From: Clostridia bacterium
GTDB lineage: Bacteria > Bacillota > Clostridia > Oscillospirales > CAG-272
Direction of reading: 5' to 3'
Assembly (NCBI GenBank): GCA_017612655.1
Contig: JAGAFM010000086.1
Coordinates: 1-53,212, forward strand
Length of the DNA stretch: 53,212 nucleotides
Shown here: positions 4,833-41,088 of the stretch, one piece after another
How positions within the stretch are numbered: the first letter of the stretch is position 1
Layout: the number at the start of each line of letters is the position of its first letter
The notes under the pieces: model-generated
Seen by the model: the letters and a program-made list of their open reading frames with translations, nothing else
Databases searched by the model: none
What the model was told of the DNA's origin: nothing
Translations under genes and position numbers: made by a program

Positions 4833-5969
4833 TCAGTTCTGATCCTCCGGCAATCCGTCAAACAAACGCATCTGCCGGTCCGTTCCTCCGTATTTCACCT
4901 CTGTGCGGTAGGGAAGGTTCAGATGCTCGTAGGCAAGCCTTGTGGCAACCCTGCCGCGGGGAGTTCTGTTCAAGAAACCGATCTGCATCAGATAGGGTTC
5001 GTAGACATCCTCCAGGGTGATTGATTCTTCCCCGACGGTCGCGGCAAGCGTCTCGAGTCCGACAGGGCCGCCGTCATAGGCACGGATAATGGTCTCCAGC
5101 ATCCTCCGGTCAACATTGTCCAGACCAAGTTCATCCACTTCGAGGGCCCCAAGCGCGTATCTTGCGATTTCCCGCGTCACAACGCCGTCTCCCTTGATCT
5201 GGGCAAAATCCCTGACGCGTTTGAGGAAGCGGTTTGCAATTCGCGGGGTTCCTCTTGAGCGGGAGGCAATTTCTCTTGCTCCGTCCTCATCGATCTCCAC
5301 GCCCAGAATCCGGGCGGAACGAAGGACGATCGTGGTCAATTCCTCCGTCGTATACAGTTCCAGCTTAAAGAGAACCCCAAACCGATCCCTCAGCGGAGTG
5401 GTCAGCTGACCTGCCCTGGTTGTTGCGCCGATCAGAGTAAACTTGGCAAGAGGCAGCCTGATGGAACGGGCTGCGGGACCCTTCCCGATAATGATATCCA
5501 GAGAATAGTCTTCCATGGCGGGATACAGAATCTCCTCAACCGGCCGGGGGAGACGGTGAATTTCGTCGATGAAAAGGACATCGTTTTCCGAAAGATTGGT
5601 AAGGAGAGCGGCAAGATCTCCCTGTTTTTCAATCGCCGGTCCCGAGGTCACGCGGATATTCACGCCCAGTTCGTTTGCGATAATCCCGGAAAGAGTGGTC
5701 TTTCCGAGCCCGGGCGGTCCGTAAAGCAGGACATGATCCAGCGGTTCGCCCCGTTTCCGGGCTGCGTCAATATAGATACTCAGGTTCTCTTTAATCTTCT
5801 CCTGCCCGATATAATCCGCGAGGTGTCTGGGACGAAGTCCGATCTCGAGTTCGGAGTCCTCTTCCTTCTTTTCTTCGTCGACAAGACGGTCTTCCCAGGC
5901 CGCGTAATCTCCGCCCTCGGCGGGAATCCCATCGAGACTGTCAACGGACGGATCAAAAAGATTCTTCAA
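4833..5969 (-). CDS. ruvB: Holliday junction branch migration DNA helicase RuvB
   Basis: Walker [10 protein letters not shown], Walker B FIDEIHRL and a RuvB C-terminal winged-helix region. Acidic ~45-aa N-terminal extension. Confidence 0.95.
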
Positions 5970-6006
5970 CAGTCAGACACGCTCCTTTCCCCTATCCACG
6001 GTTCTC

Positions 6007-6603
6007 TCAGGACAGTTTTTTCAAAGCAAGCGGGATCATCTGCTCCACCGTCAGGCCTGGGTCCACCCCGCGAAGCGCTGCCGCAGACTGGGCGCGGGAA
6101 TAGCCCAGAACCATCAGGGCGTTCAAAGCTTCCGACAAGGCGGAAGATGCACCGGTATCGGGTGCGCCGCCGCTGTCCTGCGCGTCGGATCCAATCTGTC
6201 CGGCCAGTTTATCCTTCAGTTCCAGAATGATACGGGCTGCGGTCTTCTGCCCGACTCCGGGGGCCCGCGCGATCGCCTTTGCGTCGCCTGTGGCCACCGC
6301 AACGGACAGCTGCTCCGCCGTCATCTGGGAAAGGATCGCCATGGCGGCCTTCGGACCCACCCCGGAGACCGCAATCAGGAGACGGAATGCCGAGAGTTCC
6401 TCCTGGTTGAAAAACCCGAACAGCTCCAGCCCGTCCTGGTAAACGTGAAGGTAGGTGAAGAGCCTGACATTCTCGTTCATTTTGGAGGAAAGCCTGGCGA
6501 GGGTGGTAGCGGAAGCGGTCATCCGGTAAGCGACACCGTGGTTGTCGATGACCGCCGCTCCCGTCTCGGTCGCGACGAGGACGCCTGAGATGTAGTAGTA
6601 CAT
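6007..6603 (-). CDS. ruvA: Holliday junction DNA-binding protein RuvA
   Basis: MYYYISG start, two HhH motifs (GVGPKAAMAIL, APGVGQKTAARIILELK) and a C-terminal domain III. Confidence 0.93.
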   Translation of the reverse strand: MYYYISGVLVATETGAAVIDNHGVAYRMTASATTLARLSSKMNENVRLFTYLHVYQDGLELFGFFNQEELSAFRLLIAVSGVGPKAAMAILSQMTAEQLSVAVATGDAKAIARAPGVGQKTAARIILELKDKLAGQIGSDAQDSGGAPDTGASSALSEALNALMVLGYSRAQSAAALRGVDPGLTVEQMIPLALKKLS

Positions 6604-6651
6604 TCAAAATCCTTTCCGAAAAAAGACGGAATCGGTCGAAAAACCGGCCCG

Positions 6652-7167
6652 TTAGCTGAGAACCGTCTTTTTCTGGTTATAAAAACTGCGAAGCTTGGAA
6701 CTGCCGGAATGCGCGTGACAGACTGCAATCGCAAGAGCATCCGCCACATCGTCGGGTTTCGGCATCTGCTTCAGCCTCAAAAGAGTTGTCACCAGCGTCA
6801 TAACCTGCTGCTTCTCCGCCTTACCGTATCCCACAATTGCCTGCTTGACCTGCATCGGCGTATATTCCGCGAGATACAGCTCATGCTGGGAAGCGCAGAG
6901 AAGAATCACCCCGCGCGCTTCCGCGACCGCAATTCCGTTGGTAACGTTTTTTGTAAAAAAGAGTTCCTCAACGGCAACCTCATCGGGGCGGTAACAGTCA
7001 ATGATTTCGTTCAGTTCCTCATAAATCTTTTTCAGCCGGAGTTCGACTTCCATCCCGGATTCGGTTGTTATCGCGCCGTAGGCAATCGTCCGAAATCTGG
7101 AATCGGAATAATCAACGACGCCCCAGCCGACAATGGCGATTCCGGGATCAATACCGAGAATAATCAT
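6652..7167 (-). CDS. ruvC: crossover junction endodeoxyribonuclease RuvC
   Basis: ORF 6652..7221 trimmed to ATG 7167 (MIILGIDPG, first catalytic Asp). VAVEELFF and ADALAIAVCH motifs present. Confidence 0.92.
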   Translation of the reverse strand: MIILGIDPGIAIVGWGVVDYSDSRFRTIAYGAITTESGMEVELRLKKIYEELNEIIDCYRPDEVAVEELFFTKNVTNGIAVAEARGVILLCASQHELYLAEYTPMQVKQAIVGYGKAEKQQVMTLVTTLLRLKQMPKPDDVADALAIAVCHAHSGSSKLRSFYNQKKTVLS

Positions 7168-7207
7168 GAAAGAGGTCCTTTCTCCATTTCTTTTCCTGTC
7201 CCCAAGC

Positions 7208-8245
7208 CTAGTCAAGGACACGATAGACGCCTAGCGTTGTGAACTGAGGAGTCTGAAGAGTCAGAAAAACCAGCATGGAAAGCAGATCTCCGCCTCCGAC
7301 CCGGAAAATCAGATCATAGGAAAGGGTTCCCTCCCGGTAGGGTATGGTGCTCGCATCAGCACGGACGAGAGAGAGGCCATAGAGCGAAGACGCGAGGAGG
7401 ACATCGGAGAGGGTTGTCGTTTTTTCGAGAATGACACGGCATTCAAAGAATAAATCCTGACGCGCATTCTCCGAAGGGATTTCAATCGTTCTGCGCAGCA
7501 GTCCGTATTTGGTAATCCTTTCCCCTTCGCGGGATGGGATTTCTGTCGCCATGACGATCCGAAGATCATAGCGGTCGATGAGATGGTAGAAGCGGAGCAG
7601 TTTCCCGTCTTCCGAGTTTTCAAGAGGAAGAATGCTGGCGGTAATCACTCCGTAGGACAGCGCCTCGCACATTCCGGCAAAATCGGAGTAATAGGTTGCC
7701 GTACAGCGGGAGAGTTGTGCCGAAAACCGTTCGTAGGCGAGGTCCGTATAGAGATTGCTCAGAAAGGCGATCCTCTCCCCTCCAGGCCTGGCATCAGCCG
7801 TTTCGGACACCGGGGAGTCTTCCCCGGCTTCTCCCAGGAGCATCGCAATCAGGGCCCAGGGGTCGAAGGGGGAATCTTCTGTCTGCGGAAACCATTCCGT
7901 TTCCCTCGCGAGAATGCGGCAGATCTCAATCCGGTCCATCATGTTGATCATGCGATTCGTCAGGACAGGGCTGGATACGGATTTTCCGGGAACACCGCCT
8001 GCCGTTCGGGTCACGGGCAGACCGCCCTCGCAGAGGAGAGAAAACCTGCCGTAGGCAGCTTCTTCCCGAACCGCTCTCAGCAGTCCGAGTTCTCCTTCCT
8101 GCGAGAAGGAATCGGAGAACAGCTTCGCTTTTTCCTGAAGAAAGGCATCCCGCATCGCAGAATTACGGAACAGCCTCTGGCGGAGGCGGCTCAAGTTATC
8201 GTCAATAATCCGAACCTGTTCCTCAAATGCGTTCTGGTCAATCAA
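7208..8245 (-). CDS. hypothetical protein; C-terminal half distantly resembles a shortened prephenate dehydratase (PDT) plus ACT-like region
   Basis: 345-aa ORF with coding-like composition. RIAFLSN...ASILPLENSEDG resembles the PDT blocks (V.YLG / VP.ENS.EG). ITKYGLL lies where PDTs have TRFVIL. The C-terminus LGVYRVL resembles the PDT C-terminal LG.Y. The middle of a normal PDT domain is missing. Confidence 0.55.
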   Translation of the reverse strand: MIDQNAFEEQVRIIDDNLSRLRQRLFRNSAMRDAFLQEKAKLFSDSFSQEGELGLLRAVREEAAYGRFSLLCEGGLPVTRTAGGVPGKSVSSPVLTNRMINMMDRIEICRILARETEWFPQTEDSPFDPWALIAMLLGEAGEDSPVSETADARPGGERIAFLSNLYTDLAYERFSAQLSRCTATYYSDFAGMCEALSYGVITASILPLENSEDGKLLRFYHLIDRYDLRIVMATEIPSREGERITKYGLLRRTIEIPSENARQDLFFECRVILEKTTTLSDVLLASSLYGLSLVRADASTIPYREGTLSYDLIFRVGGGDLLSMLVFLTLQTPQFTTLGVYRVLD

Positions 8246-8447
8246 ATGGCGTTCCTCCGTTCCGAATCAAGTCACGGCAAGGGGCACTGCAACCCGAACA
8301 TATTACCTTATAGTATATCATAAACCTCCCAGTTTTTCAATGGCAAACGGAAGATTTAACGGCGGATGCAAATTATTTTACAAAATCAGGCAGATGCGGA
8401 TCAGAGTGCTTCGGATCACTCCCGGACCGGACATTTTCCGCAGGCAA

Positions 8448-8476
8448 TTGACAAAAGACGGGAAGGAGACTATAAT
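8448..8476 (+). promoter_or_regulatory. sigma-70-type promoter (TTGACA-17-TATAAT)
   Basis: TTGACA at 8448-8453, a 17-nt spacer and TATAAT at 8471-8476, about 64 nt upstream of the GTG start at 8540. Confidence 0.55.
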
Positions 8477-8539
8477 GGGGAGGCTGGGAGAACACTCCCG
8501 GAACACTACAAATTCAACGGTCCGGGAAGGAGTGACACG

Positions 8540-9613
8540 GTGGAAACAGCCAGTTTTGACGTCGCGGTCATCGGCAGCGGTCCGTCCGGCGCGACTTTTG
8601 TGAGAGAACTTGCACGCTCCGCTCCCTCACGGAAAATACTTTTGATCGGCCGCTTCTCAAAAGAAAAAATGTGCGGGGGCCTGCTGGCGCCGGATGCACA
8701 GAAGGCGCTCGCGCGTTTCAATCTGACTCTTCCGAAAAACGTACTGTCCGATCCGCAGATCTTTGCCGTCGAAACCGTGGACCTTTCCCTGAAAACCACC
8801 CGCCTGTATCAGCGTCATTATCTGAACATGAAACGAAAAGCGTTCGATGACTGGCTGGTTTCCATGATCCCGGAATCCGTCACTCTGATTGATGCGGACT
8901 GTACCGCGATTGTCCGGGAAGAAGGAGGGTTCCGCATCCAGACGAATGCAGGAACGTTTTTCTCCGCTTATCTGATCGGTGCAGACGGGGCAAATTCCAT
9001 CGTTCGCAGTACGTTTTTTCCGAAATTGTCAAAGCAGTACGTCTCGATTCAGCAGTGGTTTGATCCGATCGGGCGGTCTTTCCCCGCCTACGCCTGCATT
9101 TTCGATCCGTCTACCAGCGACAGCTGCTCCTGGATCATTCAGAAAGAAGATGGTCTCATATTCGGAGGCGCCTTTCCGAAAAGGGACTGCAGAAAACGGT
9201 ACGAAACGCAGAAACGGAATCTTGAGACGAAACTTCACTGTTCTCTGGGGACTCCCAGGCGAACCGAAGCCTGTCTGCTTTCCAGCCCGCGGAAACCGAC
9301 CGATTTCCGTCTTGCCAAAGGCTCCGTCTTCCTGATCGGAGAAGCGGCGGGACTGATCAGTTCCAGCTCTTTTGAAGGAATCAGCAGTGCCATGCTGAGC
9401 GGAAAGCATCTGGCTGACGCCTTTTCCTGTGGAAAGAATGACCGAATCATTCGGCGAAAATACCGTATTTCGGTAGCGCCTCTGATTCTTAAACTGTATT
9501 TAAAAATCGGAAAGCGGTTTGTTCTCTGCTCCCCTCTCCTGCGGAAACTGATTCTGCTGACCGGTTTGAAAAGCATCAGGCGTTACCCGGGTCCGGGCTC
9601 TTCCGGCATCTGA
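8540..9613 (+). CDS. FAD-dependent oxidoreductase (geranylgeranyl-reductase / flavin monooxygenase-like family)
   Basis: ORF 8366..9613 trimmed to GTG 8540 (GGAAGGAG SD 7 nt upstream). Dinucleotide fold FDVAVIGSGPSGATF, plus LIGADGANSIVRS and FLIGEAAGLISSSSFEGIS blocks. Confidence 0.8.
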   Translation: METASFDVAVIGSGPSGATFVRELARSAPSRKILLIGRFSKEKMCGGLLAPDAQKALARFNLTLPKNVLSDPQIFAVETVDLSLKTTRLYQRHYLNMKRKAFDDWLVSMIPESVTLIDADCTAIVREEGGFRIQTNAGTFFSAYLIGADGANSIVRSTFFPKLSKQYVSIQQWFDPIGRSFPAYACIFDPSTSDSCSWIIQKEDGLIFGGAFPKRDCRKRYETQKRNLETKLHCSLGTPRRTEACLLSSPRKPTDFRLAKGSVFLIGEAAGLISSSSFEGISSAMLSGKHLADAFSCGKNDRIIRRKYRISVAPLILKLYLKIGKRFVLCSPLLRKLILLTGLKSIRRYPGPGSSGI

Positions 9614-9725
9614 ACGTTTCCGGAACGTTCTCCCTTCTCCGCCTCCACAGCCCTTTTTATCACTTTTGCGAGAAAAGAATCCGCTTTCTGCCGTTAGATT
9701 TGTCACGAAAAAAAAAGAAAAGCTC

Positions 9726-9754
9726 TTGATTCTCCCTTCCTTCTCTGATATAAT
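9726..9754 (+). promoter_or_regulatory. sigma-70-type promoter (TTGATT-17-TATAAT) for ptsH
   Basis: TTGATT at 9726-9731, a 17-nt spacer and TATAAT at 9749-9754, in an AT-rich patch. Implies a ~215-nt leader before ptsH. Confidence 0.5.
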
Positions 9755-9976
9755 ATCCGTAGGTGTAGTGTTTGATTTGGCCGGCTTCTTTTCATTCCCT
9801 GCAGATCCGTCCTTTTCCCGTCCTGTTGATGTACCCGGGGCGGACAGCAAAAAACAATGCACCGCAGTTCGAGAACCTCCCTGGTACGCTCTCTCGGTTT
9901 TCGTCTGCACATCCCTTGAGCAGAGCGTAACTATCTTGAAAGGACAGGATATAGCCCGACTATATCAGGAAGAACC

Positions 9977-10240
9977 ATGATTTCACGCGACATCACCATT
10001 CAGAACAGTGTGGGTTTGCATGCACGTCCTGCCACGTTCTTCATTCAGAAGGCAAACTCTTACAGAAGCACCATTTGGGTGGAACTGGAAGACAGGCGTG
10101 TGAATGCGAAATCCCTGCTCGGTGTTCTTTCGTTGGGCATCACATCCGGAACAACGATAACGCTGATCGCAGACGGAGTCGATGAAGTAGAAGCATTGAA
10201 CGGAATTGAGGAACTTGTTACAAGCGGTTTTTCTGACTGA
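9977..10240 (+). CDS. ptsH: phosphocarrier protein HPr
   Basis: 87 aa. His-15 site VGLHARPA and the Ser-46 regulatory site NAKSLLGVLSLG. Confidence 0.93.
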   Translation: MISRDITIQNSVGLHARPATFFIQKANSYRSTIWVELEDRRVNAKSLLGVLSLGITSGTTITLIADGVDEVEALNGIEELVTSGFSD

Positions 10241-10343
10241 TCGCCGCTTCGCAAACGAACCATTTCGTTTGACGGTAAAGATGATAGAAGCGAGCCTTTG
10301 CAAAACAGGAATTCCGTTTTGAAGGCCCGTTTTTGTTTTAGAA

Positions 10344-12221
10344 ATGGAAAATGTAAATTCTGACTCTGTCAGGCACCGCGAGGAGCTCCTGTCCAAACTA
10401 CGGGAGAAGGCAAATCTACTTCCTCCGACACCGGGGGTCTATCTGATGCAGAACAGCCGGGGCGTCATCATTTACGTCGGAAAATCAAAGGTTCTGAAGC
10501 ATCGGGTGTCCCAGTATTTTCAGTCTCATTCGGAGCTTTCTCCGAAAACGGCGAAGATGGTTTCCAGCGTGTCGGATTTTTCTTATATTCTCTGCGACTC
10601 GGAGATGGAAGCCCTTACACTGGAAAACAGTCTCATCAAGCTTCATTCCCCGAAGTACAACATTCGTCTGAAGGATGACAAAAACTATCCGTACATCCGC
10701 GTTTCCGTCAATGATCCCTACCCTACTGTTACGATGGTTCGCAAACGCGCGGGAGACGGAGCAAAGTACTTCGGTCCGTACTCTTCCGGTCAGGCGGTGA
10801 GCCGCATTCTGGCAACCATCCGGAAGACTTTCTCCCTTCCCTCCTGCAGCCGTCAGTTCCCGAGAGATATCGGGAAAGGACGCCCCTGCGTCTACGCGCA
10901 ACTCGGTCAGTGCTGCGCGCCCTGTTCCGGTCAGATTTCCAGTGAGGAATACCGGGAGCGGTTTCGGGACATCTGCGCAATGCTGAGGGGGGACTACATA
11001 GAGGCCGAGGAAGAACTGACCCGGAAAATGCAGGAAGCCTCGGATTCCCTTTCCTTTGAAGCAGCGGCCGTGTACCGCGATCGGATCCAGAGCCTCTCAT
11101 TTCTGCGGCAAAAGCAGAAAGTGGTTGCGGATCCGGATACGGACCAGGATATTATCGGCATCTATCGAAGCGAAATGTGCACGGTCCTTTCCGTGCTTTA
11201 TGTCCGTTCCGGTGCGCTGATCGATTCCGAGAATCTCGAATTCGGCGCCGATCAGATTGCGGAAGACGAAGACCTGACCTCGTTTTTGTCCGCCTTTTAC
11301 GGAAAACGCGAGTCCGTTCCGCGTGAGATTCTGATCGGGTTTCCTTTTCGGGTGGAAGAGAGCGTCTCCCTTTCCGCCTTCCTCTCCTCTCTGTCAAACA
11401 GAAAAACAATCGTCCGTGTTCCTCAGCGCGGCGATTCCAGGAAGCTCTGCGAAATGGCAAACGAAAATGCCGCGCAGCACGGGAGACAGCTGCAGCAGAC
11501 GGCGGAAAAAAATCTGGGAACCGCCGTCACTCTTGCGGAGCTTCTTGCACTGGACAGCGTTCCCGAGCGGATCGAAGCGTACGATATTTCAAATCTCGGT
11601 TCCGAACACATCACGGCGGGGATGATCGTCTGGGATTCCGGAAGATTCTGCAAAAAGGACTACCGTCTCTTCTCGATTCGCGGCGCCGGGGATTCACCCG
11701 ACGACTACGGATCCATGCGCGAGGCCCTTCGCCGCAGACTTGAGCGTCTGATGGCAAATGAGCCGGGCTTTGAACAGCCGCCGGATCTGATCCTGCTGGA
11801 CGGCGGAAAGGCGCATGTTCACGCGGCGGAAGCCGTGATGGAGGAGTTGGGGCTCTCTCTCCCCGTTTTCGGAATGGTGAAAGACGCATACCACAAAACG
11901 CGTGCGCTGACCGACTCGGACCGGGAAATCAGCATAGCCTCTCAGCAGTCCGTTTACAACTTTATTTTCAGGATTCAGGAGGAGGTCCACCGGTTCACTC
12001 TTTCGCGCATGATGAATGCGAAGCGGAAAACCGTCCGCACATCCTCGCTGGAGAAAATCAAGGGAATCGGTCCCGCAAAGGCGCGTCTCCTGCTGGAAAC
12101 GTTCGGCTCCATGGATTCCCTTGCGGGCGCATCGGAAGAGCAGCTTCTTTCCGTCAAGGGAATTCAAAAGGAACTCGCACAGGCAATTATGGATTACTTC
12201 AAGGAGAAATCAACCAGATGA
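10344..12221 (+). CDS. uvrC: excinuclease ABC subunit C
   Basis: GIY-YIG domain (GVYLMQNSRGVIIYVGKSKVLKHRV), a Cys cluster CVYAQLGQCCAPC and a C-terminal (HhH)2 (IKGIGPAKARLLLETFGS). Confidence 0.95.
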   Translation: MENVNSDSVRHREELLSKLREKANLLPPTPGVYLMQNSRGVIIYVGKSKVLKHRVSQYFQSHSELSPKTAKMVSSVSDFSYILCDSEMEALTLENSLIKLHSPKYNIRLKDDKNYPYIRVSVNDPYPTVTMVRKRAGDGAKYFGPYSSGQAVSRILATIRKTFSLPSCSRQFPRDIGKGRPCVYAQLGQCCAPCSGQISSEEYRERFRDICAMLRGDYIEAEEELTRKMQEASDSLSFEAAAVYRDRIQSLSFLRQKQKVVADPDTDQDIIGIYRSEMCTVLSVLYVRSGALIDSENLEFGADQIAEDEDLTSFLSAFYGKRESVPREILIGFPFRVEESVSLSAFLSSLSNRKTIVRVPQRGDSRKLCEMANENAAQHGRQLQQTAEKNLGTAVTLAELLALDSVPERIEAYDISNLGSEHITAGMIVWDSGRFCKKDYRLFSIRGAGDSPDDYGSMREALRRRLERLMANEPGFEQPPDLILLDGGKAHVHAAEAVMEELGLSLPVFGMVKDAYHKTRALTDSDREISIASQQSVYNFIFRIQEEVHRFTLSRMMNAKRKTVRTSSLEKIKGIGPAKARLLLETFGSMDSLAGASEEQLLSVKGIQKELAQAIMDYFKEKSTR

Positions 12222-22538: not shown

Positions 22539-24035
22539 TTACTTCCCGGAATCCGATAAAATGCAGCGGATCGCGCGATGCCACCCTTCCATCTTTCTGT
22601 CCCGCTCAGAAGGGTTCATCACCGGTTCGAAGGAGACTCCCTCCTCGCTGAGTCTGCGGATCTGATCTCTGCTGTCGAAGAAGCCCGTCGCCAGACCGGC
22701 CAGAAAGGCGGCGCCAGCGGCAGTCGCTTCCTGATTGGCGGAGCGAAAGACTTTCGTTTGCGAGATATCCGCCTGAAACTGCATCAGAAACGAGTTGGCG
22801 GAAGCACCCCCGTCCGCTTTCATGCAGGGAACGGCTTCTCCACTGTCTTCCGCCATGGCAGACAGCAAATCCGCCGTCTGATAGGCGATCGACTCCAGTG
22901 CCGCCCGGATAATATGTTCCCGTTTGGTGCCGCGCGTGATTCCCGTAATGATGCCCCTCGCGTGCATATCCCAATACGGTGCCCCCAGACCTGTAAAAGC
23001 CGGGACCACATAGACCCCTTCCGTGTCTTCCACCTTTTTCGCGAAGTACTCGCTGTCCCTGGCCTCATGAATCAGGTGCAGCCCGTCCCGAAGCCACTGA
23101 ATCACGGCGCCCCCGACGAACACGCTCCCCTCGAGGGCATACTCCAGGGGTTTTCCCGCTTCCGTTGCGGCTGCCGTCGTGACCAGCCCGTGAGAGCTGA
23201 GGACCGGCTTCGTTCCGGTGTGCGAGAGCAGAAAGCAGCCTGTTCCGTAGGTTGTCTTCGCATCACCGGGAGAAAAACACCCCTGACCGAACAAGGCGGC
23301 CTGCTGATCTCCCGCGATTCCGCAAATGGGAATCTCAGCTCCCATGATCTGGACGGTTCCGTACAACTCGCTGCTGCTCCGGACTTCAGGAAGCATGCAG
23401 CGGGGAACGTCCAAAACGGAAAGGAGTTCCTCATCCCAGTCACCCGTATGAATATTGTAAAGCATCGTCCGGGAGGCGTTGGTTCGGTCTGTCACATGAA
23501 CCCTGCCCTCCGTCAGCTTCCAGACCAGCCAGGTATCCACCGTACCAAACAGGAGGTCTCCGTTTTGCGCCTGTTCTCTCGCGCCCGGAACGTTGTCCAG
23601 AATCCATTTGATTTTCGTCCCGCTGAAATAGGCGTCCGGACGCAGTCCCGTCTTTTTGCGGATCAGTTCGGAATATCCTTCTCTTTCGAGCTGTTCGCAG
23701 AGTTCAGCCGTTCTTCTGCACTGCCAGACTATGGCGGGAAACACCGGTTTCCCGGTCCTGCGATTCCAGACAATTGTGGTCTCTCTCTGGTTGGTAATCC
23801 CGATCCCGGCTATCTCTCTGGGATCGATTCCACTTTTCGCAACGCACTCCATCATGGCCGCAAACTGATTGCCGAAAAGATCCATGGGATCCTGTTCGAC
23901 CCATCCCGGTCTCGGATAGCTTTGGGCAATTTCCTGTTGGGAAACACTGACAGGACGGACAGCACGGTCAAAGAGAATCGCCCGAGCGCTGGTGGTTCCC
24001 TCGTCCAGCGCCAACAAATACCGACTCACGTTCAC
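22539..24035 (-). CDS. glpK: glycerol kinase
   Basis: [28 protein letters not shown] and [10 protein letters not shown] motifs. The start may be the second GTG (24029), which has better spacing to the GAGAGGAG SD. Confidence 0.95.
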
Positions 24036-24064
24036 AATCTCCTCTCAGCAGTTCACTCTGAGAC

Positions 24065-24093
24065 GATTGTAACACAAGAATCAGAAAAAGTAA
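24065..24093 (-). promoter_or_regulatory. candidate glpK promoter (TTTACT-17-TACAAT with extended -10 TG)
   Basis: The minus strand reads TTTACT-TTTTCTGATTCTTGTGT-TACAAT, about 30 nt upstream of the glpK SD. Confidence 0.4.
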
Positions 24094-24158
24094 ATGGTGT
24101 TATGAGAAAAATCCCTCTTCACGGCAGATCCGCCAGGCAATGCGAAGAGAGACAGCAT

Positions 24159-24194
24159 AATCCCGGTCTGCCGAAAATGCAGCAGACCGGGATT
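24159..24194 (-). terminator. strong hairpin downstream of the ECF/DUF4430 operon (13-bp stem, weak U-tract)
   Basis: AATCCCGGTCTGC (24159-24171) pairs with GCAGACCGGGATT (24182-24194). A second 10-bp hairpin, CCCGTCAGAT/ATCTGACGGG, lies at 24228-24260. Confidence 0.4.
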
Positions 24195-24288
24195 CCATTT
24201 CTTCGACGACTCTGTCAGACTGCTCCTCCCGTCAGATTTCCTCTCAAACAATCTGACGGGTATCCGTCTCACACCGTCTTCTTCTCTT

Positions 24289-25968
24289 TTACGGACAATA
24301 TGACTCCGTCTCCGATCTCAGATCCTCTCCGAGATTGCAGGTATAAATCCATTCGATCCGATCGCCGTCAAGGCAGACATACTGACCGCAGCCGATCATG
24401 GGGGATTCTCCGTTCACCTCGTACATCCAACCGGAGAGGGGCCCGTATTCCTGTTCGTAAAGATATCCGATCCCGCGAATATAGGCGGATTCGGCGGAAC
24501 CTGTTTTATCCAGGGCAATCCGGCGGGCCGCGGTCACTTCAGACAGCACCGTGTAGACGGTGTCTCCGAGGCGGATCTCCCACTCCGTCTCCGCCAAAAG
24601 AATCCCGTCGTCCGGAACAACGGGGCTGCTCCGGTCCTCGATGGTGTCGCACCGGATAGAAATGGTAACGACCCCGACGGGCTCCGCTTTTTCGGCTGTT
24701 GCGGACGCATAGTACTCTTCCGGAAGCTGAATTCTCGCAAGGAGAAGAAGGACTGCCAGCCCCGTGCATCCCGCCAGGATGATCAGATAGTTTTTGACAG
24801 TCCGCTTCCCGCGGAGGAAAAGAATCACGCATGTGACGATTCCGGCTCCAAAAAGAAAGAGAGAGGCCCAAATTCGGATTCGGTCCCAGCCGGAAGAGTT
24901 CTCATGAACTTCCGGCTCTTCCTGTGCGGAAGGCTCTTCCTTTTCCGATTGAGGTTCGGTGTCACTTTCCGGTACGGGATCAGTCTCCCCGGGTTCAGCC
25001 CGGGTCTCCGGGCGGTCCAGAATGTAAAAGGGGGATTTTCCTTCCGCCATCCTCAGATAGGCAATCAGTGCAGAGAATACCTGAACGGTCGCAGTTTGAT
25101 TCGACTCTCCTCCTTCGGTATGCGAATAAGAGCCGTCCGAAAGCCGGTACCGTTCCAAAACATCGAGCAAATCCTCTCCGTCCTTCCGGAACCGCTCATC
25201 GGCCGTGCAATCGATGCCGAGAGAAGAGAGCGCAAGAATCACCTGAGCCGTACTCTCCGCCGATTCCGCTCCGAAGCTGGAAAAACCGCCGGACGGATTC
25301 TGCCTCAGCGAGAGGAACTCTACCGCATGGTCCACAGCCTCCCGGACCTCGGGAAATTCGGTGCAGGACGGAGCAAGCGCCTGAATCGCCATTGCCGTCA
25401 CATCGACGTCTCCCATGGTTCCGAACACAGCCCAGCCGCCGTCTTCGGTCCTAAGCGAGAGCAGCTGCCCGCACGCCTCGGAGAGCGAACAGGTCTCTGA
25501 GGCGATCCCGTTGTTCAGAAGATGAATCCCGTAGATCCAGCTCATGACCCCCTGGGCGCCTATCGTGTCCTGGATCTCCAGCTCATCCTCCACATCCTCC
25601 AGACCGCATGCGAAAAGAGTCAGGGCATATTTCTGCCATGAGGTCGGAGAGGGATTGCTCTCCGTCTGCCTGAGGCTGGTCAGCAATGCGTCGGAATACC
25701 CGGAATAATCCAGTTCCTTCCACTGACGCAGCGCGATCACAAACCATTCCGAACCGTTTCCCGCTGCATCCAGCAGGGGTCCGTCGACCCACTCCTGCGG
25801 AGTCAGGACCCCGGCCCTTTGCAGCTGACCGTTCAGAAGTTCTTCACACAGGAAGGCAGCCTGCTCTGCCTTGCCGTCCGGAATCTCCCCTGCGCCGCTG
25901 ACCGGGCAGAGGGCGGAAACCGCAAACAGAAAAAGCAGAAGCAGAGCTGTGCAGATACGTTTTTTCAT
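24289..25968 (-). CDS. surface protein: prenyltransferase/terpene-cyclase-like alpha/alpha-toroid repeats + two TM helices + C-terminal DUF4430 (transcobalamin beta-domain-like)
   Basis: Signal peptide MKKRICTALLLLFLFAVSA. Repeats LSLRTEDGGW, LSLRQNPSGGFS and YRLSDGSYSH. Glu/Pro-rich linker, then TM helices IRIWASLFLFGAGIVTCVILFL and YLIILAGCTGLAVLLLLARI. The C-terminus SGWMYEVNGESPMIGCGQYVCLDGDRIEWIYT is typical of DUF4430. Confidence 0.8.
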   Translation of the reverse strand: MKKRICTALLLLFLFAVSALCPVSGAGEIPDGKAEQAAFLCEELLNGQLQRAGVLTPQEWVDGPLLDAAGNGSEWFVIALRQWKELDYSGYSDALLTSLRQTESNPSPTSWQKYALTLFACGLEDVEDELEIQDTIGAQGVMSWIYGIHLLNNGIASETCSLSEACGQLLSLRTEDGGWAVFGTMGDVDVTAMAIQALAPSCTEFPEVREAVDHAVEFLSLRQNPSGGFSSFGAESAESTAQVILALSSLGIDCTADERFRKDGEDLLDVLERYRLSDGSYSHTEGGESNQTATVQVFSALIAYLRMAEGKSPFYILDRPETRAEPGETDPVPESDTEPQSEKEEPSAQEEPEVHENSSGWDRIRIWASLFLFGAGIVTCVILFLRGKRTVKNYLIILAGCTGLAVLLLLARIQLPEEYYASATAEKAEPVGVVTISIRCDTIEDRSSPVVPDDGILLAETEWEIRLGDTVYTVLSEVTAARRIALDKTGSAESAYIRGIGYLYEQEYGPLSGWMYEVNGESPMIGCGQYVCLDGDRIEWIYTCNLGEDLRSETESYCP

Positions 25969-26909: not shown

Positions 26910-27614
26910 TCAGGGATTCTCTTTGCTGAACAAACCGTATTTCTTCTTGAGCCGTTCCAGCTTTTCTCCGAACGGTTTGGAGAAAAGAAGCAGAAAAAGG
27001 ACATTTGATACCGCGTAGACGGCAGTCATGCCGGCGGAAGTCAGAACAATGGATCCGTATCTGGACAGAGTAAACGATCCTTCCATCCAGAGGGTAGACC
27101 AGATATCCATCGTGAAAGAATAGAACAGTCCGGCAAGAGCGCCGAAGAGGCACAGAAGGAAGCGCGACCGTTTCAACGGGGCGGACATCACCCCTGCTAG
27201 AAATCCGATCATTCCCCAGGAGAACATCTGAAACGGCGTCCAGGGTCCCTGACCGAAATAGAAATTCGAGATCACTGCGGAAAGCGATCCGACCGCGAAT
27301 CCGGCTTCTCTCCCGAGATAGACCGCCGCGAGAATCGTAATCGCGGTTACCGGCTTGAAACCCGGAAGCCAGGCGAAGAGAAACCGTCCTGCCGCTGAAA
27401 GCGCAACCAGGGCAGCCAGGGCAGTCAGTTCTCTGGAAGTGTTTTCGCGCCGTTCAAAGGAGTAGAACAAGGGGACGCATGACAGAACCGCAACACAAAG
27501 GGAGGTAAAGGCATAGTGTTTCTCCCGGAACACCAGGGTCCCGATTGTCATCAGCACGGGAATCAGGATCAGCCACAGGACAAGGGTGACGATCGCCTTT
27601 GCGCGTTTATTCAC
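26910..27614 (-). CDS. ECF transporter substrate-specific (S) component, putatively corrinoid-specific (CbrT-like by context)
   Basis: ORF 26910..27782 trimmed to GTG 27614 (GGGAGGGTG SD), which overlaps the ATPase stop by 8 nt. A ~234-aa protein with about six TM helices and no soluble domain. Confidence 0.7.
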   Translation of the reverse strand: MNKRAKAIVTLVLWLILIPVLMTIGTLVFREKHYAFTSLCVAVLSCVPLFYSFERRENTSRELTALAALVALSAAGRFLFAWLPGFKPVTAITILAAVYLGREAGFAVGSLSAVISNFYFGQGPWTPFQMFSWGMIGFLAGVMSAPLKRSRFLLCLFGALAGLFYSFTMDIWSTLWMEGSFTLSRYGSIVLTSAGMTAVYAVSNVLFLLLFSKPFGEKLERLKKKYGLFSKENP

Positions 27615-29295
27615 GGCGCTCACCCTCCCGCTTTCCGTTTCTTCTGCAAAGCGAGACGACTTCCTCACAGGAAACCGCGTTCCGGAAATGATTTCTGGAG
27701 ATCCGATTTGCGGCCGTGGTATAGAAGGTATTCCCTGCAAAGAATTCGGCAGCGGGTGCGCTGGAAAGGATTTCTCCGTCAAAGAGGATTCCGCAGCGAT
27801 CCGCGACGGAAGCGGCGAACTCCACGTCGTGCGTGACCGTGACTAGCGTCACCCCGGTTTTCTTCCACTCGTAAAACAGATTCGCAAGAATTCGCTTCCC
27901 GTGAGCGTCTATGCCTTTGGTCGGCTCATCCAGCAGAAGGATTCTCGGCGACTGGAGAATGAGTTTGGCCAGGGCGGTCTTCTGCTGTTCCCCGCCGCTC
28001 AGATCGTAGGGATGGCGGTCCAGAAGCCGGTTCAGTCCCAGAAGATCCGCAACTTCCCGTATGCTCTCCCGGGCGGAATCGCCCGAAATCTCCATCATTC
28101 GGCACATGGACTCGAGTTCCAGCTCCACCGTCTGCTCCAGAAAAACGGAACTGATATCCTGCGGGAGTCTGGCAAGAGTATGCCGGTAGAGGGAGTTTCC
28201 GGAAAAGGACTGCAGTTTCCTGCCGAGAACGGAAACGGATCCCCGGTAAGGACGAATGAGACCGGACAATAAACGCAGAAGCGTGGTTTTTCCCGAACCG
28301 TTTCCTCCGAGGATACAGAGGTGTTCCCCGCGATGAACGGATAATGAGAGTCCGCGAAGAACGTCCGGGGATTCCTTTTCGAAGCGGAACCAGAGATCCC
28401 GCGCCTCCAGGACGGGCTCCCCGTCGAAGGGGGCAGCCTCCCGCGGCACGGTGTCGAAACGGTTCCCGTACGTCCCGGAAAGAAAGAGGCTTCCCTCCCG
28501 AACCGTCAGAGGGGCATCTCCCTCTTCACCCAGCTGATAGAAAATCCGCATGGAAGAGGGGAGACTGTCGAACATGGGGTGGTCCGAGAAACTTGAGAGT
28601 TGTTTCCCGACTTCCGCCGGACTTCCCGTACAGAGAATCCGTCCCTGTTCCATGAGAACAACCCGGTCGGAAAGCGGGAAAACCTCATCCAGACGATGCT
28701 CCGCGATCAGGATGGTCAGTCCGAGTTCCCGGTTCAGTTTTTCGAGCGTCTGCAGGAAGGCGGAGGCGGAAACCGGATTCAGCTGCGCGGTCGGTTCATC
28801 CAGGAGAAGGATGTTCGGCTCCATCGCCATGACGGAAGCCAGATTCAAAAGCTGCTTTTGCCCGCCGGACAGCTCCGCCGTCTTTTTGTGAAACCACTCC
28901 TCAATTCCGAAAAAGCCGGCGATCTCCGCAACCCTGCGGCGGATTCTCCCGCTTTCCCATCCGAGGCTCTCCAGTCCGAAAGCCAGTTCGTGCCAGACTT
29001 TGTCCGTCACAATCTGCGTCTCCGGATTCTGTCCCACAAACCCGAGCCGCGCTGCGCACCCCCTGTCGGGATAATCCCGGAGCGGTTTCCCTTCCAGAAA
29101 AATCTCTCCCTCCAGTTTTCCATAAGGGGCTATCTCACGCTTAATCAGTTGGAAAAGAGTAGTTTTTCCGCAGCCGGATTCCCCGCAGAAACAGACGAAT
29201 TCGCCGGGTTCCACCGCAAGGCTGAGCCCGTCTATCGCTTTATTCTGCTCCTGAGAATAGGAAAAACTCAGATTCTGGATCTGTAGAAGCGCCAC
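27607..29295 (-). CDS. fused tandem ECF-type ABC ATPase (EcfA-EcfA')
   Basis: Two complete nucleotide-binding domains: GESGCGKTT / LSGGQKQLLNLAS / LLLDEPTAQLN, and GGNGSGKTT / LSGGEQQKTALAK / LLLDEPTKGID. Start at GTG 29295 (GGAGAA SD). Confidence 0.9.
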   Translation of the reverse strand: MALLQIQNLSFSYSQEQNKAIDGLSLAVEPGEFVCFCGESGCGKTTLFQLIKREIAPYGKLEGEIFLEGKPLRDYPDRGCAARLGFVGQNPETQIVTDKVWHELAFGLESLGWESGRIRRRVAEIAGFFGIEEWFHKKTAELSGGQKQLLNLASVMAMEPNILLLDEPTAQLNPVSASAFLQTLEKLNRELGLTILIAEHRLDEVFPLSDRVVLMEQGRILCTGSPAEVGKQLSSFSDHPMFDSLPSSMRIFYQLGEEGDAPLTVREGSLFLSGTYGNRFDTVPREAAPFDGEPVLEARDLWFRFEKESPDVLRGLSLSVHRGEHLCILGGNGSGKTTLLRLLSGLIRPYRGSVSVLGRKLQSFSGNSLYRHTLARLPQDISSVFLEQTVELELESMCRMMEISGDSARESIREVADLLGLNRLLDRHPYDLSGGEQQKTALAKLILQSPRILLLDEPTKGIDAHGKRILANLFYEWKKTGVTLVTVTHDVEFAASVADRCGILFDGEILSSAPAAEFFAGNTFYTTAANRISRNHFRNAVSCEEVVSLCRRNGKREGERRE

Positions 29296-30149
29296 AGCAG
29301 ATTCTCCTTTCCCTCCAGAAGAACCGGAAGAAGACAAAGAACGGAAAACAGCAGAATTGCCGCCGAAGCCAGGAGATCCGGCTTCGAGAGAACGATACTC
29401 GGGAAGAACTGGTAGGAAAGCCTTCCCGTAATCATGGCACAAAGGACACCCGCATCCAGCAAAAGGAGAAAAGCCAGCAAAACAGCATCTCTTCTGCGGA
29501 ACCGAAACAGGGAAAACCGGGTCCGTCCCGGGAGTCCGTACCCTCTGGCACGCATGAAGGTCCCCGTTTCGACCGCATTTTCCAGGATCCAGGTTACGGT
29601 TGCCGAAAAAACCCGGACGGTCCCCCTCCAGCGACTGGTCCAGACATCCTCTGTGTACAGTCCCAGAGATTTCTGCGCTTCGCGGATCGACTGAGCCTTC
29701 TGGCGGATCCGGGGGAGAAAACGCAAAGCCGTGGAAAGAACCAGCGCCAGCTTCGGCGACAGTCTGCCGAACAGATCAAGAAGTTTGTCTTCCGTCATGA
29801 TCTCTTTCAGACAGCGAAACCAGAAGAAAACCGAAACCAGCATCACTCCCAGATTGATTCCGTACAGAAGAGATTCCAGGGTAAGGGGGTCTCCGTTCAG
29901 GAAAATCAGGGGCGTCGCCCCGTTGTGGGAAACCAGAGGATTTACCAGTGTAACAAGGAGGACAAAGCAACAATAGGGAGCAACCGCCCGAAAGGAGCGG
30001 ACCGCGGGACAAATCCGGAAGCAGAACAGAACCCCGCCGATCAGGGAGATTCCCGTCAGAACCGGATTGCCGGAAAACATCGCGAAAAACAGAACGGAAA
30101 AGAAGAAAAAGGCAGAAACCAGAGGATGGCAGTCTGACAGTCTTGGCAT
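29268..30149 (-). CDS. ECF transporter T component (CbiQ/EcfT family), dedicated module
   Basis: ORF 29268..30386 trimmed to ATG 30149 (GGGAGGG SD 8 nt upstream). Polytopic protein. Its upstream 79 codons lie in the riboswitch and terminator. Confidence 0.85.
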   Translation of the reverse strand: MPRLSDCHPLVSAFFFFSVLFFAMFSGNPVLTGISLIGGVLFCFRICPAVRSFRAVAPYCCFVLLVTLVNPLVSHNGATPLIFLNGDPLTLESLLYGINLGVMLVSVFFWFRCLKEIMTEDKLLDLFGRLSPKLALVLSTALRFLPRIRQKAQSIREAQKSLGLYTEDVWTSRWRGTVRVFSATVTWILENAVETGTFMRARGYGLPGRTRFSLFRFRRRDAVLLAFLLLLDAGVLCAMITGRLSYQFFPSIVLSKPDLLASAAILLFSVLCLLPVLLEGKENLLWRFYRSRI

Positions 30150-30201
30150 TCGGGTTCCCTCCCTTTCCGCGTTCCGCATTTTTCGCCCGCCGACACTCGT
30201 C

Positions 30202-30259
30202 AAAAAGAAAAAAGTGAAGCCGGAAGATCGCGCATCGCGGCGATCCGCTGGATTCACTC
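30202..30259 (-). terminator. riboswitch expression-platform terminator
   Basis: The minus strand reads GAGTGAATCCAGCGGATCGCCGCGATGCGCGATCTTCCGGCTTCAC followed by TTTTTTCTTTTT. It is a long imperfect hairpin with an inner GATCGC/GCGATC stem and an outer AGTGAA/TTCACT stem. Confidence 0.6.
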
Positions 30260-30261
30260 TT

Positions 30262-30470
30262 CGCACCAAAGAGGCAGAATTCCACAGAAGATACGGCAGG
30301 GGTCCTGACTTATGATGGGGCAGAAAGCCCGAAAGCAACAGATCCCTCCTGCAAAAATAGCAAAGAGACTGCGCTCCTCCCGTCAAATACAGTAATGGCG
30401 GTTGCTCCGGATTCGAACCGGATTACCTTTTCATCTACTCAGTTAACAACTTTTCAAAACCGTATCTTCC
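30262..30470 (-). ncRNA. cobalamin (B12) riboswitch
   Basis: The minus strand reads AAAAGGTAATCCGGTTCGAATCCGGAGCAACCGCCATTACTGT ... CATAAGTCAGGACCCCTGCCG. This matches the conserved core (AGGGAA / GGTG.AA.TCC / GC.G..CCGC.ACTGT) and the B12 box (AGTCAGGA.ACCTGCC), followed by a terminator and the ECF operon. Confidence 0.8.
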
Positions 30471-30496
30471 CGACATTATTCTTTTTTCCGGGGAAC

Positions 30497-30525
30497 AGTA
30501 TAGCACGGCGGGTTCAATCTGTCAA
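30497..30525 (-). promoter_or_regulatory. promoter of the riboswitch-ECF operon (TTGACA-17-TATACT)
   Basis: The minus strand has TTGACA (30525-30520), a 17-nt spacer GATTGAACCCGCCGTGC, and TATACT (30502-30497). Confidence 0.55.
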
Positions 30526-40942: not shown

Positions 40943-41088
40943 AAAAAGCGGAAAAAGAGAAGGAGTTAAAGCCCGGATAATTCCGGGATGTACGAGGCCG
41001 TACATCGGTCGACTGCCTGCGAAGTCTGTTTCAAGGACCGGTGCCTGACCCGCCACAGGCGCTGAGCGTTCTCTTTTCCGCTTTTTTT
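40943..41088. repeat. 19-bp inverted repeat (one bulge) enclosing a 107-nt hairpin-rich core; candidate small RNA or MITE-like element
   Basis: AAAAAGCGGAAAAAGAGAA (40943-40961) is the reverse complement of TTCTCTTTTCCGCTTTTT (41069-41086), with one extra A. Inner hairpins are CCCGGA-TAAT-TCCGGG, ATGTACG-AGGC-CGTACAT and GCCTG...CAGGC. It lies between two convergent gene ends. Confidence 0.6.

Follow-up and report, generated by a model that had tools for sequence, protein, structure and literature searches.

A Predicted Membrane-Tethered Protein of Transcobalamin-like Architecture Encoded in a Cobalamin Riboswitch-Controlled ECF Transporter Operon from a Clostridia Bacterium

Introduction

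The animal carriers of vitamin B12, transcobalamin, intrinsic factor, and haptocorrin, are soluble proteins whose two domains are connected through a short linker. In this report, we describe a gene from a gut or rumen Clostridia bacterium (Oscillospirales, CAG-272; GenBank assembly GCA_017612655.1) that is predicted to encode a membrane-tethered protein of 559 residues in which both folds of these carriers are found, arranged as in the carriers. The gene is found in contig JAGAFM010000086.1, positions 1 to 53,212 of which were analyzed and are called the window below. It lies in an operon that encodes a transporter of the energy-coupling factor (ECF) type. A preliminary description of the window, made from the nucleotide sequence, had proposed that the protein is a bacterial counterpart of the complete eukaryotic carrier and that it captures corrinoids for the ECF transporter.

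The closest described proteins were predicted computationally. Burroughs, Balaji, Iyer, and Aravind (Biol Direct 2007, PMC1796856) defined the soluble ligand-binding β-grasp (SLBB) superfamily, and described bacterial proteins in which an N- or C-terminal α/α toroid is fused to a transcobalamin-type SLBB domain. These proteins have signal peptides and Gram-positive anchors, and they are encoded in operons with CbiO/CbiQ genes and a second anchored SLBB protein in hosts that lack B12 synthesis. The authors predicted a role in the scavenging of B12 and a lateral transfer of the toroid-SLBB form to animals. The protein reported here shares with them the toroid and the SLBB/DUF4430 domain, the secretion signal, the CbiO/CbiQ-like (ECF) operon, and the presence of another anchored surface protein in that operon. 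A transmembrane hairpin between the domains, control by a riboswitch, and split and fused forms of the anchor go unmentioned in the text consulted.

Three further systems are also relevant. ECF-CbrT from Lactobacillus delbrueckii (PDB 6FNP) was experimentally characterized by Santos et al. (2018, PMC5997447) as an importer of cobalamin and cobinamide. In Lactobacillus sakei, the extracellular proteins Lsa1839 and Lsa1840, which are transcobalamin α-like and β-like, are encoded beside an ECF transporter, as is the protein described here (bioRxiv 10.1101/864751). The two L. sakei proteins are separate secreted halves with heme as the claimed substrate, whereas the protein from the window is a single chain that passes through the membrane and is preceded by a B12 riboswitch. 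ECF transporters are generally described as functioning without extracytoplasmic binding proteins (bioRxiv 10.1101/864751). In Bacteroides, BtuG, BtuH, and BtuJ provide a functional analogy, since they are riboswitch-linked surface proteins that capture B12 and feed a transporter (PMC8941943, PMC13616437). However, these are outer-membrane lipoproteins of unrelated folds that serve the TonB-dependent BtuB, and no homology is implied. A 2026 review describes extracellular cobamide capture in Gram-positive Firmicutes as “entirely uncharacterized” (PMC13616437).

Results

Predicted Structure and Domain Architecture

A structural model of the protein was obtained with AlphaFold2 using an alignment of 58 sequences. 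The mean predicted local distance difference test (pLDDT) score was 86.7 and the predicted template-modeling score was 0.68. The pLDDT values fell below 50 only at the signal-peptide junction, in the acidic linker, and at the last residues. When this model was compared with the PDB using Foldseek, the best 15 matches were all to transcobalamin, intrinsic factor, or haptocorrin, with E-values of 4e-9 to 5e-7. These alignments extend over approximately 530–580 columns and so cover both domains, at sequence identities of 10–15%. Drimenyl diphosphate synthase, squalene-hopene cyclase, and the β subunits of farnesyltransferase ranked after the carriers, beginning at an E-value of 5e-6. The likeness to transcobalamin that had been anticipated in the preliminary description is thus apparent in the model and extends across both domains.

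In the model and its Foldseek matches, an N-terminal α6/α6 toroid is followed by a C-terminal β-grasp (SLBB) domain. The two folds and their order are shared with transcobalamin, intrinsic factor, and haptocorrin (PDB 2bb5, 2bb6, 2pmv, 4kki, and 4zrp). In contrast to the animal carriers, the two domains are separated by an acidic tether of about 40 residues and two transmembrane helices. The predicted structure supports the proposal that the protein is a bacterial counterpart of the eukaryotic carrier architecture.

The signal peptide, the quoted toroid repeats, the acidic linker, the two transmembrane helices, and the DUF4430 domain of the preliminary description were all confirmed on the 559-residue open reading frame. 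The repeats LRTEDGGW, LRQNPSGGFS, and LSDGSYSH were located at residues 171–179, 221–230, and 276–283, respectively. The pLDDT values of the toroid are mostly above 90, and 77 of its positions are at least 90% conserved. The linker contains 15 Asp/Glu, 7 Pro, and 3 Lys/Arg among its 43 residues and has no conserved position. For the C-terminal domain, residues 468–543 were matched to PF14478 (DUF4430) with an E-value of 3.3e-15 and 56.7 bits, relative to a cut-off of 23.8, and the same family was matched by all 58 homologues. The sequences SGWMYEVNG and DGDRIEWIYT are both present. This domain was modeled with β-grasp secondary structure at pLDDT values of 84–98, and 34 of its positions are at least 90% conserved. 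The PF14478 family also takes in the animal carriers' C-terminal domain. TCN proteins have been reported to carry a DUF4430 domain in their C-terminal region (PMC4350170).

Two cysteine residues of the DUF4430 domain, C440 (24649–24651, in RCDT) and C527 (24388–24390, in GCG), are invariant or nearly so in the 58 homologues. By analogy with the Cys of BtuM, they could provide a cobalt ligand, or they could form an extracellular disulfide. His283 of the toroid is also invariant in this set. At the N-terminus, an alternative TTG start codon 12 nucleotides upstream of the ATG would add four residues. A lipoprotein signal was considered and rejected, since Leu precedes Cys21 at the –1 position and the lipobox does not fit.

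Sequence Relationships of the Toroid

The toroid scored below the Pfam cut-offs for PF13243 (20.6 versus 26.1 bits, E-value of 2.6e-4) and PF13249 (16.6 versus 26.2 bits). Using phmmer against the PDB, residues 160–302 were found to resemble a drimenyl diphosphate synthase of the β/γ terpene-cyclase-like type with an E-value of 4e-12. At E-values of 1 or less, PF13243 was matched in 48 and PF00432 in 32 of the 58 homologues. Judged from these matches, the toroid is real despite its subthreshold Pfam score.

The class II terpene cyclases and the prenyltransferase β subunits (SsDMS, 7xr7/8zg0; squalene-hopene cyclase, 2sqc) share the α/α toroid repeat and are the closest proteins in sequence. 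The protein from the window differs from them in that its toroid is predicted to be extracytoplasmic, its structural matches to these enzymes rank below those to the B12 carriers, and neither a DxDD nor a DDxxD motif is present. Within the first 340 residues of 120 homologues, the DxDD motif was found in 2 sequences and the DDxxD motif in 3.

Predicted Membrane Topology and Proposed Origin of the Hairpin

The transmembrane helices were located by hydropathy at residues 366–384 and 395–413, and the helices of the AlphaFold2 model span residues 361–385 and 391–410. In each of the 120 top homologues, two such helices are joined into a hairpin by a basic loop. The loop is 4–10 residues long, rich in Lys and Arg, and of the KKRN(I/K)K type, and the flanks of the hairpin are acidic, strongly so ahead of the first helix. 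Taken with the signal peptide, the positive-inside rule would make the loop cytoplasmic and would put the toroid as well as the DUF4430 domain outside the cell. This is the topology that had been proposed earlier, with both domains outside and tethered by the hairpin.

The origin of the hairpin is suggested by relatives in which the protein is split. A profile search was conducted with 60 high-quality genomes from the same taxonomic family as the genome of the window. Relatives were found in 28 of these genomes; about half are in one piece, as in the window, and the rest are split. In two loci from two genera (L089 and L090), a protein of 625 or 636 residues consists of a signal peptide, the toroid, a coiled-coil region, a single C-terminal transmembrane helix, and a basic tail. 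The gene directly following encodes a protein of 184 residues with a single N-terminal transmembrane helix and then the DUF4430 domain, and the gene for the ECF T component is next. Since an anchored toroid and an anchored β domain occur as adjacent genes in these relatives, the hairpin corresponds to a pair of single-pass anchors linked at their ends, and the basic loop to a remnant of the two cytoplasmic ends. The split loci argue for the hairpin as a tether, not a functional module, and for a pairing of the α and β halves that does not depend on a covalent link. Cysteines matching C440 and C527 are both retained in the split 184-residue proteins.

Other surface proteins are encoded at the split loci. 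In L089, positions 5848–11475 (–) encode a giant protein of 1875 residues with a toroid domain and, at its end, SGKTGDS and a transmembrane segment. Secreted proteins of 561 residues (L089, 4132–5817 (–)) and 452 residues (L090, 4188–5546 (–)) have a C-terminal transmembrane anchor as well as the DUF4430-like motif GSGWMY.VNN. Toroid-containing open reading frames of 1,400–1,970 residues occur in several genera.

Conserved Gene Context and Riboswitch Association

Relatives of the protein were confirmed at at least 536 places in a collection containing one genome per species. The hosts include Oscillospiraceae, Acutalibacteraceae, Ruminococcus, Lachnospiraceae, and other rumen and gut Clostridia, and an orthologue is found in the cultured strain Ruminococcus flavefaciens Y1 (L058). 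When members with E-values of 1e-30 or less are clustered at 50% identity, the family comprises at least 1,129 clusters.

The gene context was determined for 82 related loci. A homologue of the gene for the partner surface protein, P2, is directly upstream of the gene in 79 of the 82, and the ECF T and A genes are contiguous with this pair in 69, with the T component identified by tblastn. In five loci with sufficient sequence on both sides the pair stands alone, and the remaining eight are cut by the ends of the contigs. The statement in the preliminary description that the gene is the last of a B12 riboswitch-controlled ECF operon is correct for the window but not for the family, since the order with the ECF genes first was found in 12 of the 82 loci, whereas the order partner, toroid-DUF4430 protein, T, A, and S was found in 57.

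Sequence upstream of the genes was available for 34 related loci, and in 26 of these a B12-class riboswitch precedes the genes on the same strand (RF00174, or RF01689 in the R. flavefaciens type). The co-occurrence with B12 riboswitches that had been expected is thereby established for most of these loci. The riboswitch of the window is the sole match to the Cobalamin family in the 1.46-Mb assembly, and against this background of one riboswitch per 1.46 Mb, the association with the pair is far beyond chance. There are seven loci (L002, L020, L030, L037, L040, L050, and L054) in which the pair had no ECF genes visible next to it, although in three of them the contig may end too early to show such genes; in these loci the riboswitch ends approximately 55–265 nucleotides before the gene for P2. 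The pair itself, and not just the transporter, is tied to corrinoids.

The riboswitches vary among the related loci. Two cobalamin riboswitches are present in L024, one at 5819–5989 before the pair and one at 8692–8824 between the gene for the toroid-DUF4430 protein and that for ECF T, so that binders and transporter appear to be under separate control in this locus. In two loci of the R. flavefaciens type (L035, 5889–5964, and L038, 5786–5861), the pair is preceded by an AdoCbl-II riboswitch (RF01689) rather than RF00174, and the locus of strain Y1 has no riboswitch at the gathering score. At L003 (3637–3888) and L004 (39–290), the riboswitch is separated from ECF T by an open reading frame of 83 residues that was called as PF18780 (HNH_repeat).

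The Partner Protein P2

The AlphaFold2 model of P2 has a pLDDT of 88.5, and most of its fold matches are to immunoglobulin (Ig) domains. The Ig-like domain is of the CarboxypepD_reg type in 18 of the 47 members of the P2 family, and the N-terminal domain is α/β. The homologues are anchored by SPKTG, PETGD, or PQTG signals or by a plain transmembrane anchor. The N-terminal domain was matched to the β domain of human apo transcobalamin (5no0) with a template-modeling score (TM-score) of 0.66, a root-mean-square deviation of 3.0 Å, and 21% identity in an alignment of 108 columns; ranked by E-value, this match was number 37. PF14478 was not found by Pfam in P2 or in any of the 47 members, no matches to the PDB were returned by hmmsearch with the P2 profile, and only the transmembrane segments were aligned when P2 was compared with the β domain of its neighbor using profile–sequence and profile–profile hhalign. 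From the modeled fold, P2 is likely a second SLBB protein.

Organization of the Operon

The features of the operon and of the encoded protein are presented in Table 1. The genes following the riboswitch are those for the T component, the fused A-A′ ATPase, the S component, P2, and the toroid-DUF4430 protein, with gaps of 49 nucleotides ahead of P2 and 31 nucleotides between the last two genes. When the RNA from 30170–30300 (–) was folded, a stem GAAGAGUGAA...UUCACUUUUU was obtained, followed by UCUUUUU. A generic scan for terminators did not rise above background, with 16 found relative to 10.2 expected, and the expression platform was assigned from the particular hairpin and U-tract that follow the aptamer.

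Table 1. Coordinates of the operon features and protein domains in the window
Feature	Position	Strand	Basis or comment
Promoter-like TTGACA-17-TATACT	30497..30525	(–)	11 of 12 consensus positions; consensus match only
Cobalamin riboswitch aptamer (RF00174)	30278..30479	(–)	54.4 bits versus gathering score of 31.5; full-length match
Hairpin and U-tract, terminator-type expression platform	30202..30262	(–)	RNA fold; putative function
ECF T component (CbiQ-like)	29268..30179	(–)	Weak TIGR02454 match; homologues in related loci called as PF02361 CbiQ (L003)
Fused ECF A-A′ ATPase	27607..29442	(–)	Bounds of the open reading frame, start probably further downstream; two PF00005 ABC_tran domains, E-value 4.7e-58
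CbrT-like ECF S component	26910..27782	(–)	Bounds of the open reading frame, homology from about residue 115; PF07155, E-value 8e-8
Partner surface protein P2, 286 residues	26000..26860	(–)	Signal peptide, β-grasp N-domain, Ig-like domain, PKTGD, transmembrane segment, basic tail
Gene for the toroid-DUF4430 protein	24289..25968	(–)	ATG-started open reading frame, 559 residues
Signal peptide, residues 1–26	25891..25968	(–)	MKKR, then hydrophobic core at residues 5–23
α/α toroid, residues 27–317 (transcobalamin α-domain counterpart)	25018..25890	(–)	Helical repeats; fold matches to transcobalamin, intrinsic factor, and haptocorrin
Acidic Pro/Glu-rich disordered linker, residues 318–360	24889..25017	(–)	Composition and pLDDT below 50
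Transmembrane hairpin, residues 361–413 (helix 1, loop LRGKRTVKNY, helix 2)	24730..24888	(–)	Hydropathy and model helices
Short stalk and DUF4430/SLBB domain, residues 414–559 (transcobalamin β-domain counterpart)	24292..24729	(–)	PF14478 match

The S component was matched by phmmer to chain A of 6FNP, the vitamin B12 transporter ECF-CbrT, with an E-value of 9.9e-10. The operon therefore combines a CbrT-related S component, T and A components, and a cobalamin riboswitch, as would be required of a B12 importer of the CbrT type. As in ECF-CbrT (PMC5997447), a sequence-related S component is found with ECF T and A components. The L. delbrueckii system makes use of a shared (group II) ECF module and was studied without an extracytoplasmic binder, whereas the module in the window is dedicated, controlled by a riboswitch, and accompanied by two surface proteins.

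Two further features of the window were noted. A frame of 693 residues is open on the opposite strand at 22578–24659 (+), antisense to glpK and to the 3′-end of the gene for the toroid-DUF4430 protein, and it is probably a by-product of the composition of the DNA rather than a gene. At 40958–41064 (–), there is a full-length match to the RT-5 RNA (RF03026) of 80.4 bits, relative to a gathering score of 45.7, that is unrelated to the B12 operon.

Corrinoid Physiology of the Host

Three open reading frames with B12-binding domains were found in the assembly to which the window belongs. CbiC and CobS were not found in this assembly, which is only 59% complete. Among the 60 genomes of the same family, CbiC is present in three, all of which lack the gene described here, and all 28 genomes that carry the gene lack CbiC. 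This pattern fits B12 auxotrophs that scavenge the vitamin. The one other genome sampled from the same genus as the genome of the window (G052) is 4.2 Mb in size, has CbiC, and has no transcobalamin-like gene, whereas most members of the family have genomes of 1.5–2.6 Mb and lack CbiC.

Discussion

In this report, we propose that the protein encoded in the window is a corrinoid binder, transcobalamin-like and anchored in the membrane, and that it works for a CbrT-type ECF importer that is dedicated and repressed by B12. We regard this assignment as probable. The idea that such proteins scavenge B12 is not new, having been published as a prediction in 2007, and the protein described here is a further member of that family. 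New in this work are the hairpin with its basic loop, which is universal in the homologues examined, its equivalence to separately anchored halves, the nearly obligatory partner gene, and the control of the pair itself by a riboswitch.

The analysis shows the predicted folds and anchors as well as the linkage of the genes and their association with riboswitches; the identity of the ligand at the protein level, the closing of the two domains, and the hand-over to the transporter are inferred. When B12 is scarce, the riboswitch with its terminator-type platform would permit transcription of the genes for T, A-A′, S, P2, and the toroid-DUF4430 protein. The toroid and the SLBB domain would then reside outside the cell on flexible tethers, where they would close on a single corrinoid bound between them, in a manner similar to that of the α and β domains of transcobalamin. 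The corrinoid would subsequently be handed to the CbrT-like S component and imported at the expense of ATP. The hairpin would have no function of its own, being two single-pass anchors joined by gene fusion. P2, with its β-grasp and Ig-like domains on a sortase or transmembrane anchor, would probably act as an outer capture layer at the level of the cell wall or as an alternative cap for the toroid.

Several observations weigh against this assignment. The superpositions of the model with the animal carriers gave TM-scores of only 0.3–0.5 and root-mean-square deviations of 12–17 Å, which suggests that the domains are placed differently in the model than in holo-transcobalamin, or that the inserted hairpin distorts their placement. 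In sequence, the toroid (residues 160–302) is nearest to class II terpene cyclases. PF01122 (Cobalamin_bind) was not matched by the protein at an E-value of 0.1 or less and was not listed for any of the 58 homologues at 1 or less, and in this the protein differs from the animal carriers. Transcobalamin chains were not returned from the PDB at E-values of 10 or less by phmmer with the protein or by hmmsearch with the 58-sequence profile; only terpene-cyclase-like proteins were obtained. By sequence, then, the protein would not be counted as a member of the eukaryotic carrier family. The likeness of P2 to the transcobalamin β domain comes from one structural match at rank 37. No riboswitch was found at the gathering score in 8 of the 34 related loci. 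Given the incompleteness of the genome, the host is at most a putative auxotroph, and the anticorrelation between CbiC and the gene is not statistically meaningful with CbiC in only 3 of the 60 genomes. A search of the literature uncovered no biochemical study of any member of the family beyond the heme study in L. sakei and no ligand-binding data.

It is conceivable that the ligand bound and delivered by the pair is not a corrinoid but a different tetrapyrrole, such as heme. Heme-uptake phenotypes have been described for lsa1836–1840, and heme was docked between the α-like and β-like proteins (bioRxiv 10.1101/864751). However, a riboswitch of the cobalamin class precedes the genes in the window and in most of the related loci with upstream sequence (26 of 34), the S component is matched to CbrT, and the operon showed no gene or regulator related to heme; a heme ligand is thus very unlikely. 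We consider an enzymatic role outside the cell similarly improbable for the toroid, whether of the terpene-cyclase/prenyltransferase type or in the remodeling of corrinoids, with the DUF4430 domain only presenting the substrate. The sequence matches of residues 160–302 to class II terpene-cyclase-like proteins (E-value of 4e-12) and the strong conservation of a D-x-D-[VT]-T-A-M motif together with many polar residues are in keeping with an enzyme. Yet the DxDD and DDxxD motifs are missing from the protein and nearly so from the family, the toroid would be located outside the cytoplasm and far from isoprenoid diphosphates, and the structure of the whole chain is nearest to that of nonenzymatic carriers. 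The conserved polar residues would be equally expected in a pocket that forms hydrogen bonds with the amides of the corrin.

A different question is whether a corrinoid is bound for a purpose other than import, such as a surface store, the withholding of the vitamin from competitors, or the selection and proofreading of cobamides. The five loci in which the riboswitch-controlled pair has room on both sides and no adjacent ECF genes are in keeping with such a role, and additional roles of this kind are known for the surface B12 binders of Bacteroides (PMC13616437). On the other hand, the pair is contiguous with the ECF genes T-A(-S) in 69 of the 82 loci, and repression by B12 suits acquisition better than storage. 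We therefore think it unlikely that the bound corrinoid is not destined for the importer.

The supply of corrinoid to the CbrT-type importer could be part of a more elaborate system. In such a scheme, B12 would be passed through the Gram-positive envelope in three tiers, from P2 at the wall to the tethered α/β clamp and from there to the S component, so that the ECF transporter would depend on binding proteins. The halves of the clamp would each have their own tether, as neighboring single-pass proteins or as one chain fused by way of a hairpin. This relay would be the main high-affinity route for B12 in many auxotrophic gut and rumen Clostridia, and the animal carriers could plausibly derive from the fused α-to-β form. 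We offer this broader proposal tentatively and consider that it has somewhat less than an even chance of being correct.

The existence of this family will not surprise a specialist who is familiar with the 2007 analysis. Nevertheless, its members are widely distributed and of ecological relevance, and they pose a clear biochemical question that can be tested. If the binding of corrinoids and their hand-over to CbrT are true, these proteins would account for the competition for B12 by the dominant Clostridia of the rumen and gut. The same results would also place on an experimental footing the proposal from 2007 that the B12 carriers of animals were acquired from such bacteria.

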